Positions 58,410-64,000 of a DNA stretch of 64,000 nt are shown piece by piece. Position numbers and translations under genes: made by a program. Origin of the DNA: Microgenomates group bacterium GW2011_GWC1_46_15 (GTDB lineage Bacteria > Patescibacteriota > Microgenomatia > UBA1400 > UBA12028); contig LCLX01000001.1 of the NCBI GenBank assembly GCA_001002285.1, positions 192,302 through 256,301 of the forward strand. The letters run 5' to 3'. The stretch's first letter is position 1. Every line of letters begins with the position of its first letter. The notes beneath the pieces are model-generated. The model worked only from the letters and a program-made list of their open reading frames with translations, was not told where the DNA came from and did no database searches.

Positions 58410-58453
58410 GCGCGCGGTATCATGAGGATACGTCGTTGTGTTTGGTCGTGCCT

Positions 58454-59803
58454 ATGCCCAAGAAATTACCCAAGAAAACTATGCCAAAAAAAACCGTTTC
58501 CCACAAAAAATCCGGGGTTCGAACGAAGTCCGGGTTTAAAAATACACCAAAAACTAAAAACATACAATATAGTGTCTCTAAACACGCTGCTTTTAAACAC
58601 GGTGCGTCGAAGCAGGGTGTTTCCAAGCAAAATACTCCTAAGCAAGGTGCGTTTAAACAGTCAACCTCTCCGCGGCCAGCTCCAGTAACACTCTCTGCCC
58701 GCAAAGAAGCCCAAGCGAGTGCGCTCAAACAACGCATCGCCGATCTTCTCAAACGCGCGAAAAACCAAGGATTTATCACACAGGAAGAAATTCTCGGTGT
58801 ATTTGCATATCCCGAAGATCACCTCAAGGAGTTGGATGGGTTATACGGCACCATGTTTACCGCGGGTGTAGACGTGTTCGAGACCGTTGAAGAAGAGCAG
58901 ATGAAGGAAGATTCTGGCGTCATTTCTGACCTGGAGAAAGAACTCGAAGTATTGTCTACACTTGATGACCATTCCGTTGCCGACCCCGTCCGCATGTACT
59001 TGAAAGAAATCGGCCGCATTCCCCTGTTGACGCGCGAAGAAGAAATTGACTTGGCGCAGAGAAATGACGGCGGCGATCCGGTTGCAAAACAGAAGCTCAT
59101 TAATGCAAACCTGCGTCTAGTGGTTTCAATCGCGAAAAAATACATTGGCCGTGGCATGACATTTTTGGACCTCATTCAAGAGGGTAACAAAGGATTAATC
59201 CGCGCGGTTGAAAAATATGACTGGACGAAAGGGTTTAAGTTTTCCACATACGCAACGTGGTGGATCCGCCAAGCCATTACCCGCGCGATTGCCGATCAGG
59301 CCCGCACCATCCGTATTCCCGTTCACATGGTTGAAACGATCAATAAGTTGATGCGCGTCTCCCGCAAGCTTATGCAGGACTTGGGCCGCGAGCCAACCGC
59401 CGAGGAAATCGCGGACGCGATGGAAGGCATTGACCCCGACCGCGTGCGCGAGATTTTAAAGATTTCACAAAAAACCACGTCGTTGGAAACACCGATTGGA
59501 GACGATGACGATTCCTATTTGGGTGACTTTATTGCCGATGATACGCAGACCTCGCCGTACGATGCCACGAGCAAGCGGTTGTTGAAAGAAAACATTGAAG
59601 AAGTATTGAGTGCGTTGACCGACCGTGAGGCCAAGGTCTTGAAAATGCGGTTTGGACTAAACGGCGCTCGCCCGATGACGTTGGAAGAAGTTGGTCAGAA
59701 GTTCGGCGTCACGCGCGAACGTATCCGGCAGATTGAGGCGAAGGCGCTGCGAAAGCTCAAGCACCCGAGCAAGCGGAAAATGCTCCAGGATTACTTGGAG
59801 TAG
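58454..59803 (+). CDS. rpoD: RNA polymerase sigma factor RpoD (sigma-70) with an unusual Lys-rich N-terminal extension
   Basis: Regions 1.2-2.4 ([27 protein letters not shown]; [18 protein letters not shown]...[17 protein letters not shown]) and region 4 ([15 protein letters not shown]). Start at the ATG of MPKKLPKK (the track starts at a TTG 18 nt upstream). Confidence 0.9.
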
Positions 59804-60899: not shown

Positions 60900-60935
60900 C
60901 TATGAGTTGATTGTTCCTATGTTCAGGACTATAAT

Positions 60936-61619
60936 TTGAACATGGGTTACTTTGGAAATTTGGAAAAGAAAATACAGGCGCAGCAATTAAGAAAAAAGGG
61001 CTTGTCCTACTCTGAAATCAAAAAACGCATTAATGTTCCTAAAAGCACTTTAAGTAATTGGTGTCGAGACATTGCACTTACCGAAGGACAAGCTCTTCGA
61101 CTTTTTAAGAATAAACTTACAGGTTCAGCTCGCGGACGAATAATAGGAGCAAAACGCCAACAGGCAAAAAGATTACGACAAATTTCCGATATGTTAACTG
61201 AGGGGAGGAAAGAAGTAGGGTCTTTGTCGACAAGAGACGTATTCATTGCGGGAATTTGTTTGTACTCTGCTGAGGGAACAAAAAGGGACAAGGCGTGTGG
61301 TTTTGCCAACAGCGATCCTTTGTTGATAAAATTTATGGCAAATTGGTTTAGAAAATTTTGTCATGTTTCGGAAGAAAAATTTAGGGGAGCAATTTGGATT
61401 CATTCGGGTTCTGATTATCGGAAGGCAACACACTATTGGTCTAAAGTTGCTGGTATACCAACATCACAATTTCTCAAACCATATATCGTAGCAAATAAAA
61501 CAGAGAGTCGAAAAATTCGGAAAAATATCCATCCATATGGAGTATTTTCCATCAGATTTTCTGATGCAAAAATTCATAGAAAAATAATGGGATGGATCTC
61601 TGGAATACTCGATTCCTAG
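60936..61619 (+). CDS. HTH-domain protein, possible free-standing LAGLIDADG-type homing endonuclease
   Basis: N-terminal HTH (LSYSEIKKRINVPKSTLSNWCRD). FIAGICLYSAEGTK resembles a LAGLIDADG motif followed by a beta-rich region; weak, by eye. Ends 34 nt before the intron-containing tRNA-Asn. Confidence 0.35.
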   Translation: MNMGYFGNLEKKIQAQQLRKKGLSYSEIKKRINVPKSTLSNWCRDIALTEGQALRLFKNKLTGSARGRIIGAKRQQAKRLRQISDMLTEGRKEVGSLSTRDVFIAGICLYSAEGTKRDKACGFANSDPLLIKFMANWFRKFCHVSEEKFRGAIWIHSGSDYRKATHYWSKVAGIPTSQFLKPYIVANKTESRKIRKNIHPYGVFSIRFSDAKIHRKIMGWISGILDS

Positions 61620-61652
61620 CTGATATAATACCCCTGTTCTTTTATAGATCGA

Positions 61653-61982
61653 TCCCCGGTAGCTCAGCCTGGTAGAGCGGGAAGCTGTAGCGTACTGCAG
61701 CCCTTTTTAGCGATGAAAAGGGAAACACAGGGTGAATTCAGGGAAGCCTTCGCTAGTGGTGAAAATCAATAGCATGGTAATCCTGAGCCAACTCCGATGA
61801 ATGGAATAAACGTAGTCGGAAGGGTGCAGAGACTAGGAGTGAGGATCCAACCAATACTCTCCAGAAGCGCCCTGCTCCAACATTATTTCGGTAGCGTTGG
61901 ATGAAGAGATAGTCCACACTTTATGGAAACATAAAGAGCATGTGTAACTTCAAGGTCCAAGGTTCAAATCCTTGCCGGGGAG
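61653..61982 (+). tRNA. tRNA-Asn: tRNA-Asn (anticodon GUU) interrupted by a group I intron
   Basis: Exon 1 61653-61688 (TCCCCGG acceptor, GCTC-AGCCTGGTA-GAGC D-arm, GGAAG, CUGU). Exon 2 61945-61982 (UAA, CTTCA, T-arm CAAGG-TTCAAAT-CCTTG, CCGGGGA, discriminator G). The spliced anticodon loop CUGUUAA equals the canonical tRNA-Asn loop. Confidence 0.75.
61689..61944 (+). ncRNA. group I self-splicing intron (~256 nt) in the tRNA-Asn anticodon loop
   Basis: P1: exon GCUGU pairs with the internal guide GCAGC (61697-61701), with U.G at the splice site. AAAGGGAAAC (P4-like). GGGUGCAGAGACUAGGAG (R element, P7 5' strand). GAAGAGAUAGUCCACAC (S element, P7 3' strand). The intron ends with G before exon 2. 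Closely resembles cyanobacterial tRNA-Leu intron core sequences. Confidence 0.75.
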
Positions 61983-62006: not shown

Positions 62007-62720
62007 ATGAAACCTTCTGAAAGAAAACAAAGATTGGTTGAAGAGTTAGCCGATCTTTATGAAAAATTAGATACCAATAAACTTTATGGTTTTCCGAACC
62101 AAAAAGATACACAACAATGGCTAGCAAACGTGGCATCTGTTCTAAAAAATTTAGATGAAAGCGATTATCAAGAGATTGTTAGATTAAGTAAAACTGTTGG
62201 CCTTTCTGAATCTCGTGAAGAAAGAAAAAAGGCAGCTAAGGAAATTAATCAGTTTTTAGGGCGCAAGGTTGCTGAGTATAAAAGATATGATTTTGGTTAT
62301 CTAGATAGAAAAGTTGAAGATTATCCTGAAGATATTACAAATTATGTCCACGACAAAGAATTAAGAGGTAGATGCCTAGATTTACTTCAAGCTAGTTCAA
62401 AATTCGATAGGGTTATCAATCAAGCAACGCAGGTACTGGAAGATCGAATCAGAACTAAATCTGGTTTGCAAGAGCATCTTGTTGGAGAAGCATTAGTCAA
62501 TAAGGTACTTAATCCAGATTTATCAAAAACAGTGATAAATATTTCTAGTGATGCTGATGAACACCAAGGATTCTGTAATATATGTCGTGGCATGATGGGA
62601 ACATTTAGAAATCCATCTCACCATCATTTAACAGACACAATTACAAGAGAAGAAGCATTCAAGGTTTGTGCCTTTGTGGATACGTTACTTTCTATTCTGG
62701 AGCGGGCTAAAAATGTATAA
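62007..62720 (+). CDS. Hypoth_Ymh (TIGR02391)-like C-terminal domain protein with HEPN-like Rx4H motif; putative abortive-infection/toxin component
   Basis: C-terminal QATQVLEDRIRTKSGL...GFCNICRGMMGTFRNPSHHH...EEAFKVCAFVDTLLSIL matches the TIGR02391 pattern (F..G..IRNP.AH) recalled from memory. Confidence 0.45.
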   Translation: MKPSERKQRLVEELADLYEKLDTNKLYGFPNQKDTQQWLANVASVLKNLDESDYQEIVRLSKTVGLSESREERKKAAKEINQFLGRKVAEYKRYDFGYLDRKVEDYPEDITNYVHDKELRGRCLDLLQASSKFDRVINQATQVLEDRIRTKSGLQEHLVGEALVNKVLNPDLSKTVINISSDADEHQGFCNICRGMMGTFRNPSHHHLTDTITREEAFKVCAFVDTLLSILERAKNV

Positions 62721-63315
62721 CGATAAATATATTGAAGACTTATTTAACAATATAAAAAATAGTATTGTTAATGACGTTGGATTGGCCATAAAGGCTTACT
62801 GTTCTGAGTATCACAACGGCAATATAACGTCTGGTTTCTTTGCTGTGCCTCGATTGTTACTACCTGAAATTGATGGCATGGGAGCATATATCACCGGAAA
62901 TGTTAATTCCACTGCTAGTAATATTGAAAGTTATCTCGAAAAAATTATGTCCAAAATCGATGATAAGTACTCCGTATATGCGAAGTTTATCTCAAAAATA
63001 TATAGGCATGGACTACTACATCAACATGAACCTAAAAATTGCAAATACCAGGGTAGGGATGCAGCGTGGAGTTTTGTGGTTAGTAATCCAAATAATCCTA
63101 TAGAGATTCAGCACAAGTATCATTTGGTAGAAAACCAAATTACTTTCGATAAATCCATACAGAACCCTCCTTTTGTTCTTCAAACAGACATGACACTCTT
63201 CTACAAAGATGTTGTTGATTCAATCGATAGAATGAAACAAGAATCTAAAACTACCTACAGGAAAACATTTGATAAAGCTAGGAATGAACAACTTAAAGTA
63301 CAAATATTAACATGA
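62713..63315 (+). CDS. hypothetical protein with Rx4H (HEPN-like) motif YRHGLLHQHEP, overlapping partner of 62007..62720
   Basis: Start at the ATG of MYNDKYIEDLF (8-nt overlap with the upstream stop); no other motif recognised. Confidence 0.4.
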   Translation: MYNDKYIEDLFNNIKNSIVNDVGLAIKAYCSEYHNGNITSGFFAVPRLLLPEIDGMGAYITGNVNSTASNIESYLEKIMSKIDDKYSVYAKFISKIYRHGLLHQHEPKNCKYQGRDAAWSFVVSNPNNPIEIQHKYHLVENQITFDKSIQNPPFVLQTDMTLFYKDVVDSIDRMKQESKTTYRKTFDKARNEQLKVQILT

Positions 63316-63505
63316 ATAAATTGTGTGTTTTACACCAAAACTTGAAGCATCTAATTCATTTCCTCCCTTAATTACTAAACAAACCTAAAATCCTCAAATA
63401 TATTGGACACTTAGGCTAAATTGGTGATTATATTAACATTACGATCTTCGAGCAAACGTATTTAGCCTTTCAAAACGAGCCATTTTTGAATGTTATAATG
63501 AGGTT

Positions 63506-64000
63506 ATGGAACTCCATCGATTTAGCCCAATACAAGACGAAGCGCAGATGATGAAAGCAATAAAACATATTCATTTTGCTTGCCACACGTTGTGTATGCA
63601 ATCAATGGGGAGATATTTACCAGTTGCTGGGAACGTGGGAGTCTTTTGTCATGATGATGACGAATATGCGTTCCTTACAAAACTCCGTGAAAAATTTACG
63701 GATTCGTCTAACAGTGTATACGGAAAATATTTTCGACTTCACAAACCTATCGTTATTCCAGCAAAGGGTGATATTCCAAAAACCACGTACAGTTATCTTT
63801 ATATTCGGAAACCTGACCCAAATAAAAACCAGGTGGGTGATATAGATTTCTACTTAGAGCCAGAAAAATATGCAGAATTAAAACAATCCTTACTTGAGGG
63901 TAAGATGATCACAGGCGCACGAGTGCTTCCCAATCGTCCCGACTTGGATTTGATTGAATTATATAGTCAAGACATCGACGCGTTCGGCTATATTGGTAAC
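63506..64000 (+). CDS. hypothetical protein, N-terminal 165 aa (runs off the right edge)
   Basis: ATG at 63506 with upstream GAGG and TATAAT (63495-63500); open frame to the window end (MELHRFSPIQDEAQMMKAIKHIHFACHTL...). Missing from the track because there is no stop in the window. Confidence 0.35.
   Translation, partial: MELHRFSPIQDEAQMMKAIKHIHFACHTLCMQSMGRYLPVAGNVGVFCHDDDEYAFLTKLREKFTDSSNSVYGKYFRLHKPIVIPAKGDIPKTTYSYLYIRKPDPNKNQVGDIDFYLEPEKYAELKQSLLEGKMITGARVLPNRPDLDLIELYSQDIDAFGYIGN

Follow-up and report, generated by a model that had tools for sequence, protein, structure and literature searches.

A tRNA-Asn(GUU) gene with a putative self-splicing group I intron between anticodon positions 35 and 36 in a Microgenomates group bacterium

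The two halves of a tRNA gene lie apart near the end of a 64,000-nucleotide (nt) stretch of DNA from Microgenomates group bacterium GW2011_GWC1_46_15 (assembly GCA_001002285.1, contig LCLX01000001.1, positions 192,302 to 256,301; hereafter the window, whose own numbering is used throughout). Which tRNA do these halves encode, what separates them, and at which nucleotide would they be joined? An initial annotation of the DNA had proposed a tRNA-Asn(GUU) gene split by a group I intron. Here, comparison with homologous loci leads us to conclude with high confidence that the gene at 61653-61982 (+ strand) encodes tRNA-Asn(GUU) and is interrupted between U35 and U36 by a self-splicing group I intron that lacks an open reading frame (ORF). 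We also describe a conserved gene that lies directly upstream of the split tRNA gene and may act on it.

The split tRNA gene and its intron

The placement of the two tRNA halves 256 nt apart was borne out, with exons at 61653-61688 and 61945-61982. Joined, the exons fold into a 74-nt cloverleaf that ARAGORN identifies as tRNA-Asn(GUU), with the anticodon loop CUGUUAA and the discriminator G that had been proposed. When introns were allowed, as the initial annotation had suggested for a tRNA finder, ARAGORN called Asn(gtt) with a 256-nt intron from sequence position 37. Because the D loop has 9 nt, this position lies between canonical positions 35 and 36, the insertion site counted earlier by eye, and the geometry of the P1 helix described below gives the same site. 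The gene reads UCCCCGG-UA-GCUC-AGCCUGGUA-GAGC-G-GGAAG-CUGU, followed by the 256 nt of the intron and then by UAA-CUUCA-AGGUC-CAAGG-UUCAAAU-CCUUG-CCGGGGA-G; the discriminator G is 61982, and CCA is not encoded. The tRNA body is of the Asn type (U1-A72, G73), and the same ends are found in at least 90 homologues and in the uninterrupted tRNA-Asn genes of related loci. Both U1-A72 and the discriminator G73 are Asn identity features, as known from E. coli tRNA-Asn. In default mode, ARAGORN reported four other tRNAs in the window and missed the split gene, which was also missed by the Rfam tRNA model. An ARAGORN call of tRNA-Pro(GGG) lies at 397-468, where the Rfam tRNA model stays below its gathering score. 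The parts of the tRNA-Asn gene are as follows.

61621-61629, + strand: extended -10-like element TGATATAAT, 23 nt 5' of the tRNA-Asn start, read from the sequence
61653-61688, + strand: 5' exon, comprising the acceptor 5' strand, D arm, anticodon stem 5' strand and loop nucleotides C32 U33 G34 U35, ending in GGAAGCUGU (ARAGORN, on joined exons and with introns allowed)
61689-61944, + strand: group I intron, 256 nt, ORF-less, starting AGCG and ending AUGUG, with the terminal guanosine (omega-G) at 61944 (RF00028, covariation, minimum free energy (MFE) fold with z = -2.8)
61945-61982, + strand: 3' exon, comprising U36 A37 A38, anticodon stem 3' strand, variable loop, T arm and acceptor 3' strand, from UAACUUCA to CCGGGGA-G (ARAGORN)

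The TGATATAAT element is the probable promoter of the tRNA-Asn gene itself. An element of the same form, TGnTATAAT, is present in the gap between the upstream ORF and the tRNA in 18 of 67 related loci; a simple promoter scan made no call at 61621-61629 because no -35 element is present there.

A search with the Rfam group I intron model RF00028, which had likewise been suggested, returned a match over the full model (1-253) at 61677-61936, with 89.7 bits and an E value of 1.3e-21 (gathering score, 50). This score is among the highest measured in the tRNA-Asn intron family, in which scores range from 58 to 98 bits. The helices predicted for the intron, all on the + strand, are listed below.

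61685-61700: P1 hairpin, in which the internal guide UGCAG (61696-61700) pairs with exon CUGU and intron A (61685-61689) (RF00028, covariation)
61702-61722: P2 hairpin, compensatory changes in 6 of 6 pairs (also in the MFE fold)
61728-61734: P3 5' strand, pairing with 61868-61874, double changes in 3 of 7 pairs
61738-61786: P4-P5-P5a domain, in which P4 is 61738-61743 with 61781-61786 (RF00028, covariation)
61787-61825: P6 and its extension P6a, 6 of 6 P6a pairs covarying
61831-61835: P7 5' strand GACUA, within the invariant block CAGAGACUA (RF00028, 27-sequence alignment)
61836-61861: extra hairpin, placed between P7 and P3' like P7.1/P7.2 of subgroup IA introns (covariation of the closing stem)
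61868-61874: P3 3' strand (covariation)
61876-61901: P8 hairpin (covariation, MFE fold)
61910-61914: P7 3' strand UAGUC, within AAGAGAUAGUCC (RF00028, 27-sequence alignment)
61915-61917 with 61942-61944: P9.0-like helix, including omega-G, 2 of 3 pairs covarying
61919-61936: P9 hairpin, 6 of 7 pairs covarying

Several details of the initial annotation reappear in this fold, namely a P1 helix with a U.G pair at the splice site (U61688.G61697), R and S elements that form P7 (GACUA, 61831-61835, with UAGUC, 61910-61914) and a 3'-terminal G of the intron (G61944). The motif GGGAAAC (61720-61726) had been taken for a P4-like element; it is in fact the P2 3' strand together with J2/3, and P4 lies further downstream. 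A terminator-like call at 61684-61701 arises from the P1 hairpin and the U-rich P2 strand (CCUUUUU) just 3' of it. We regard an intrinsic terminator here as probably a coincidence, because the U-run varies among the related introns and is not kept in them.

The fold was examined in an alignment of 27 non-redundant short homologous introns, the window intron included. The RNAalifold consensus of this alignment contains P1, P2, P3, P4, P5 and its extension, P6 and its extension, P8, P9 and the P9.0-like helix, and compensatory double changes were found in 38 of its 54 predicted pairs. P7 was added to the consensus as a pseudoknot before the pairing controls were run. Standard pairing was observed in 97.4% of cells, compared with 76% in shuffled alignments (0 of 500 reached the observed value), and only 32 to 43% of cells were paired when the 3' partners were slid by 1 to 3 columns. 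The covariation score was 0.585 for the predicted structure and at most 0.11 for the slid structures. The RF00028 E value and the covariation in 27 homologues exclude a chance match, and the earlier identification of the element as a group I intron stands.

Splice junction, splicing pathway and competing readings

Two junctions in this locus are compatible with an exon ending in U, an intron ending in G and a 7-nt anticodon loop: U35/U36, which yields tRNA-Asn(GUU), and U33/U34, which yields tRNA-Thr(UGU). For the latter, U33 (61686) would be joined to U61943, giving the loop CUUGUAA, and ARAGORN accepts this product as Thr(tgt), as it does for 31 homologous loci. In P1, however, U33 pairs with an A, and the wobble pair that marks the 5' splice site, U61688.G61697, sits at U35. 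This U.G pair is present in 25 of the 27 aligned homologues, with alignment gaps in the other two, and the adjacent pair covaries. At the 3' side, an intron ending at 61942 would not follow the P9.0-like helix, which covaries and ends exactly at G61944; the omega-G column is G in 27 of 27 sequences, with two covarying pairs just before it. The U1-A72 pair and G73 are common to the homologues, of which all of at least 90 splice to Asn. For a homologous Patescibacteria intron, the spliced product was sequenced and the junction lies at 35/36, with best BLAST matches to intron-less tRNA-Asn (Nakagawa, Amikura, Omae and Suzuki; bioRxiv 10.1101/2025.07.03.662931; mSystems 2026, PMC13011429, cited below as Nakagawa et al.). 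That study notes that ARAGORN and tFind often miscall 35/36 tRNA-Asn introns as Thr(UGU) introns at 33/34, and it settled the two-base ambiguity between Asn and Thr in favor of Asn by sequencing. Taken together, a tRNA-Thr(UGU) gene with an intron at 33/34 is extremely improbable.

Some observations nevertheless weigh against a tRNA-Asn(GUU) gene with a self-splicing intron. ARAGORN places a G27.A43 mismatch atop the anticodon stem of the joined tRNA-Asn, and P10, read from the sequence, would comprise at most 2 bp. P7 is invariant in 27 of 27 introns and is therefore neither supported nor contradicted by covariation. The intron appears to be subgroup IA-like, an assignment drawn from the extra hairpin and the literature only. 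The search for an uninterrupted tRNA-Asn, negative with both ARAGORN and Rfam, covered the 64-kb window as its part of the genome. The mismatch in particular would fit a decayed, non-splicing relic of an intron within a tRNA pseudogene. We consider this very unlikely: all core helices are intact, the invariant blocks CAGAGACUA, GAUAGUCC and GGUAAUCC match the family consensus, the RF00028 score is near the top of the family range, and the window contains no other tRNA-Asn. We therefore retain the reading of a tRNA-Asn(GUU) gene interrupted at 35/36, and infer that the window copy is spliced and serves as the working tRNA-Asn of the cell.

If the intron splices by the established group I mechanism, the pre-tRNA would be transcribed, probably from the extended -10 promoter at 61621-61629, and the intron would fold into P1 to P9 so that P1 presents U35 in the U.G wobble. 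An exogenous guanosine bound in P7 would attack the phosphate after U61688. The terminal G61944 would then fill the guanosine site in P7, and the free 3'-OH of U35 would attack the 3' splice site, joining U35 to U36 and restoring the loop CUGUUAA. The tRNA would be finished by RNase P, 3' trimming and CCA addition, the last being needed because CCA is not encoded. In line with this pathway, precise GTP-dependent self-splicing of a homologous Patescibacteria tRNA-Asn intron was demonstrated in vitro, with the junction sequenced, and was abolished by an omega-G-to-C mutation (Nakagawa et al.).

Related introns and genomic setting

To place the intron among its relatives, species-representative genomes were searched with a DNA pattern consisting of the P7 3' strand, a gap, G followed by UAA, a second gap and the T arm, which yielded at least 120 loci (numbered with the prefix L where needed). 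Among the 120 pattern-matched loci listed, at least 90 yield a valid tRNA-Asn(GUU) when spliced at 35/36; their introns measure 189 to 590 nt, and all of these loci carry the acceptor ends UCC...GGA-G. The closest intron among the matches listed, at 70% identity, belongs to a Patescibacteria metagenome-assembled genome (L008). The arrangement is widespread outside Patescibacteria among species representatives based on metagenome-assembled genomes, and the matches listed include 35/36 tRNA-Asn introns of Omnitrophota, Acidobacteriota, Nitrospirota, Margulisiibacteriota, Elusimicrobiota, Planctomycetota, Methylomirabilota and Cyanobacteriota (Microcoleus, Tychonema, Phormidium). Two intron contigs (L014, L027) are labelled Pacearchaeota; a similar case has been suspected of mis-binning (Williams 2020, bioRxiv 10.1101/2020.01.27.920355).

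The extra hairpin between P7 and P3' varies within the family: its closing stem covaries, and some relatives have two hairpins at this place and others a minimal tetraloop hairpin. Subgroup IA introns have P7.1/P7.2 between P7 and P3'. At least 20 tRNA-Asn introns are long (>500 nt), and most of these contain ORFs with a CxxC...HH...CANCHREIH signature. HNH-signature ORFs of about 100-135 amino acids (aa), read by eye, are present in the introns of L004, L021, L028, L032, L047, L051, L074, L079, L082, L083, L089, L091 and L107, and several other long introns contain just truncated HNH ORFs, consistent with decay of the endonuclease gene. Among 120 viral pattern matches, 13 splice to tRNA-Asn. 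Viral contigs of 50-90 kb from IMG/VR carry tRNA-Asn(GUU) introns (L225:176-404, L269:5568-5794 and L232:5892-6100; RF00028, 60 to 96 bits) within dense arrays of 10 to 16 tRNAs per few kb; such phage tRNA arrays could carry the tRNA-Asn intron between hosts.

How does this intron compare with those already known? Williams (2020) extended the four classical bacterial tRNA hosts (Leu, fMet, Arg and Ile2, all with IC3 introns) to 21 settings, one of which Nakagawa et al. cite as 'Asn.4Ug'. Nakagawa et al. surveyed 95 complete Patescibacteria genomes, from which they described 15 tRNA-Asn(GUU) introns at 35/36; they assigned 25 of 28 published 35/36 introns to subgroup IA, detected HNH endonuclease genes in four long tRNA-Asn introns and found the site rare outside Patescibacteria. 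The window copy shares with this class the host tRNA, anticodon, insertion site, the logic of a U before the intron and omega-G at its end, phylum, size range and the absence of an ORF, and also the annotation failure, being missed by default tools or called Thr(UGU) at 33/34. It differs from the class in nothing of substance and lies outside the complete genomes surveyed there. Because every testable feature of the class is present, we regard the window intron as one more member and not as a new kind. To the published survey, in which the site was rare outside Patescibacteria, our scan adds many examples from other phyla. The HNH-encoding Patescibacteria introns occupy the same site in the same tRNA; by comparison, the window intron is short (256 nt) and codes for nothing, and the gene beside it lies outside the intron and is LAGLIDADG-like rather than HNH.

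The window intron resembles the classical introns of tRNA-Leu, tRNA-Arg and tRNA-Ile in being a group I intron of the anticodon loop, self-splicing by prediction, in its size class of about 200-250 nt, in lacking an ORF and in having a U.G pair where the 5' exon ends. The classical introns, in contrast, lie at 34/35 (Leu) or 36/37 (Arg, Ile) and belong to IC3, whereas the window intron lies at 35/36 and has the extra P7-P3' hairpin, in line with the predominance of IA among published 35/36 introns. The resemblance to the cyanobacterial tRNA-Leu intron that had been drawn initially extends only as far as a group I intron in the anticodon loop, and departs at the extra hairpin and the mostly IA, not IC3, architecture of published 35/36 introns. 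The accompanying view that the case is unlike the classical Leu, fMet, Arg and Ile introns is correct as to site and host, although the class has since been published (Williams 2020; Nakagawa et al.).

The window as a whole is ordinary chromosome, with genes for GluRS, DnaG, RpoD and a family-2 glycosyltransferase and a G+C content of 35-50%. Logan contig SRR6487776_19 and DQGK01000040.1, a contig of the metagenome-assembled genome GCA_003524785.1, match the locus at 100% identity. The locus is not an assembly artefact, since it recurs unchanged in more than 20 independent assemblies. In nine loci, mostly titled Parcubacteria, Paceibacterota or Patescibacteria, rpoD lies 5' of the split tRNA-Asn. 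Judged by its closest intron, its rpoD synteny and the homologues of the flanking ORF, the locus is of patescibacterial (candidate phyla radiation) origin. In the window, rpoD (58436-59803) lies shortly upstream of tRNA-Asn, as it does in L008, L025, L032, L040, L046, L059, L089, L094, L119 and L124, and dnaG precedes rpoD in both the window and L124; rpoD-tRNA-Asn is a conserved neighbourhood amid otherwise little patescibacterial synteny. Directly 3' of the tRNA, the G+C content falls to 35% (62007-64000), and the first genes encode a Hypoth_Ymh/TIGR02391 protein (62007-62720) and an unknown ORF product (62668-63315). In other loci the genes 3' of tRNA-Asn likewise vary and resemble defence genes (Mrr_cat in L130, DUF5677 in L127), which suggests islands integrated at the 3' end of the tRNA gene.

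A conserved gene beside tRNA-Asn

What is the gene that ends immediately upstream of the split tRNA?

60942-61619, + strand: flanking gene with ATG start, 225 aa, N-terminal helix-turn-helix (HTH) and C-terminal LAGLIDADG-like fold, separated from the tRNA by 33 nt

A promoter-like TTGATT-17-TATAAT at 60907-60935 ends 6 nt before the ATG at 60942, so that the mRNA of this ORF may have little or no leader. Searches of the ORF against Pfam, NCBIfam, PHROGs and, as a single sequence, the PDB recognized only the HTH. Its family comprises 319 database proteins and 477 metagenome relatives with 46-76% identity and 40 invariant columns, and the named homologues come from Berkelbacteria, Woesebacteria and Microgenomates. 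In an AlphaFold model (pLDDT 88.8), the protein consists of the HTH, a long helix and an alpha/beta domain. In a PDB profile search, I-DmoI was matched weakly (E 0.03-0.09), while Foldseek ranked OmpA-like domains first, with poor scores, in disagreement with LAGLIDADG, and the Pfam LAGLIDADG models matched none of 30 family members even at E <= 10. Because of these two results, we speak of a LAGLIDADG-like fold and not of membership in that family. In the motif helix, FIAGIxLYxxEGxK, residues G106, G114 and K116 do not vary, and 30 of 30 members have E or D at position 113 (E113 here).

A near-identical locus (L215:436-1113; ENA ANAN16-1_SAMN03203000 scaffold_5214), with 99.8-100% identity, has a 28-bp deletion in the flanking ORF, through which the HTH segment VPKSTLSNW is lost and the reading frame changes, and a second gap of about 38 bp near window positions 62943-62982. 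The 28-bp deletion may represent a true null allele or an error of assembly.

We counted the linkage between this gene and tRNA-Asn in 79 loci that encode a family member with enough sequence downstream (related loci L121-L210). The first junction rule left 13 loci open, and these were settled by Rfam and inspection (11 with an intron, one uninterrupted and one without a tRNA). In 78 of the 79 loci the ORF is followed directly, on the same strand, by a tRNA-Asn(GUU) gene, and the remaining locus has no tRNA. The distance from ORF to tRNA is mostly 3-40 nt (overall 3-70 nt), and the genes on both sides of the pair vary by locus. A group I intron splits 71 of the 78 linked tRNA-Asn genes, and seven are uninterrupted. 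Conversely, the flanking ORF accompanies just three of the at least 90 intron-bearing loci listed in the genome scan. The excess of introns beside this ORF, relative to the background of 15 per 95 genomes (Nakagawa et al.), may be a phylogenetic effect. In that study, endonuclease genes were sought only inside introns and the flanking gene is not mentioned, and a literature search found no other description of it; its linkage to tRNA-Asn is apparently unreported.

Such tight linkage invites the question of what the protein does. Candidate roles are homing as a free-standing endonuclease, regulation in the manner of WhiA and assistance in splicing. A precedent for the first is collaborative (trans) homing, known from phage T4 (mobE/I-TevIII) and cyanophage S-PM2 (F-CphI/psbA), where a free-standing endonuclease gene lies beside an intron without an ORF (Hausner, Hafez and Edgell 2014, PMC3984707). 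By this analogy, an active enzyme would cut tRNA-Asn loci that lack its gene, and the ORF-less intron would be co-converted. This fits the retention of the acidic motif residue, the frameshifting 28-bp deletion in a near-identical strain, the flips of intron presence among the closest ORF relatives and the window intron itself, which is closer to introns of ORF-less loci in other phyla than to those beside the closest homologues of the ORF. The likeness to the phage systems is one of analogy only; the host here is a cellular tRNA gene, and theirs are phage protein genes. Furthermore, the seven loci that pair the gene with an intron-less tRNA-Asn are not predicted if the target is the intron insertion site, and they weaken a model in which the intron protects the tRNA gene from the neighbouring endonuclease. 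We regard active trans homing as less likely than not.

The same seven loci, one of which matches an intron-bearing locus in its anticodon stem-loop, favor a function for the host, namely a domesticated WhiA-like DNA-binding protein or a maturase kept because it acts on the tRNA-Asn gene or its transcript. The strong conservation of the whole protein, its absence from the viral contigs examined and the probable tRNA promoter TGnTATAAT at the 3' end of the ORF point the same way. WhiA (DUF199) is a transcription factor of LAGLIDADG origin; its HTH is C-terminal, and both of its LAGLIDADG domains are degenerate. The flanking protein differs from it: a single LAGLIDADG-like domain is joined by a long helix to an HTH at the N terminus, and the acidic motif residue is kept. 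The conservation of this residue, E113, as in an active enzyme, argues against domestication. A maturase is made less attractive by the protein-free self-splicing of a homologous tRNA-Asn intron (Nakagawa et al.). Two further points weigh against a host function: 87 of the at least 90 intron-bearing tRNA-Asn loci in the genome scan lack the gene, and a near-identical strain carries the frameshifting deletion. A host function remains a reasonable candidate, to which we would give somewhat less than an even chance.

Default tRNA finders miss or misname genes of this kind and, as Nakagawa et al. pointed out, genomes consequently look as if they lacked tRNA-Asn and their completeness scores drop. 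To this the window contributes one more confirmed example, and the same arrangement is found in many phyla besides Patescibacteria and in tRNA arrays of phage-like contigs. If the flanking protein were a homing endonuclease, the Patescibacteria tRNA-Asn introns regarded as devoid of homing endonuclease genes, and hence immobile, would be mobilized from outside, and the published inference that they rarely move would have to be revised. Should it instead regulate the gene or help in splicing, a bacterial tRNA gene would have a new protein partner.

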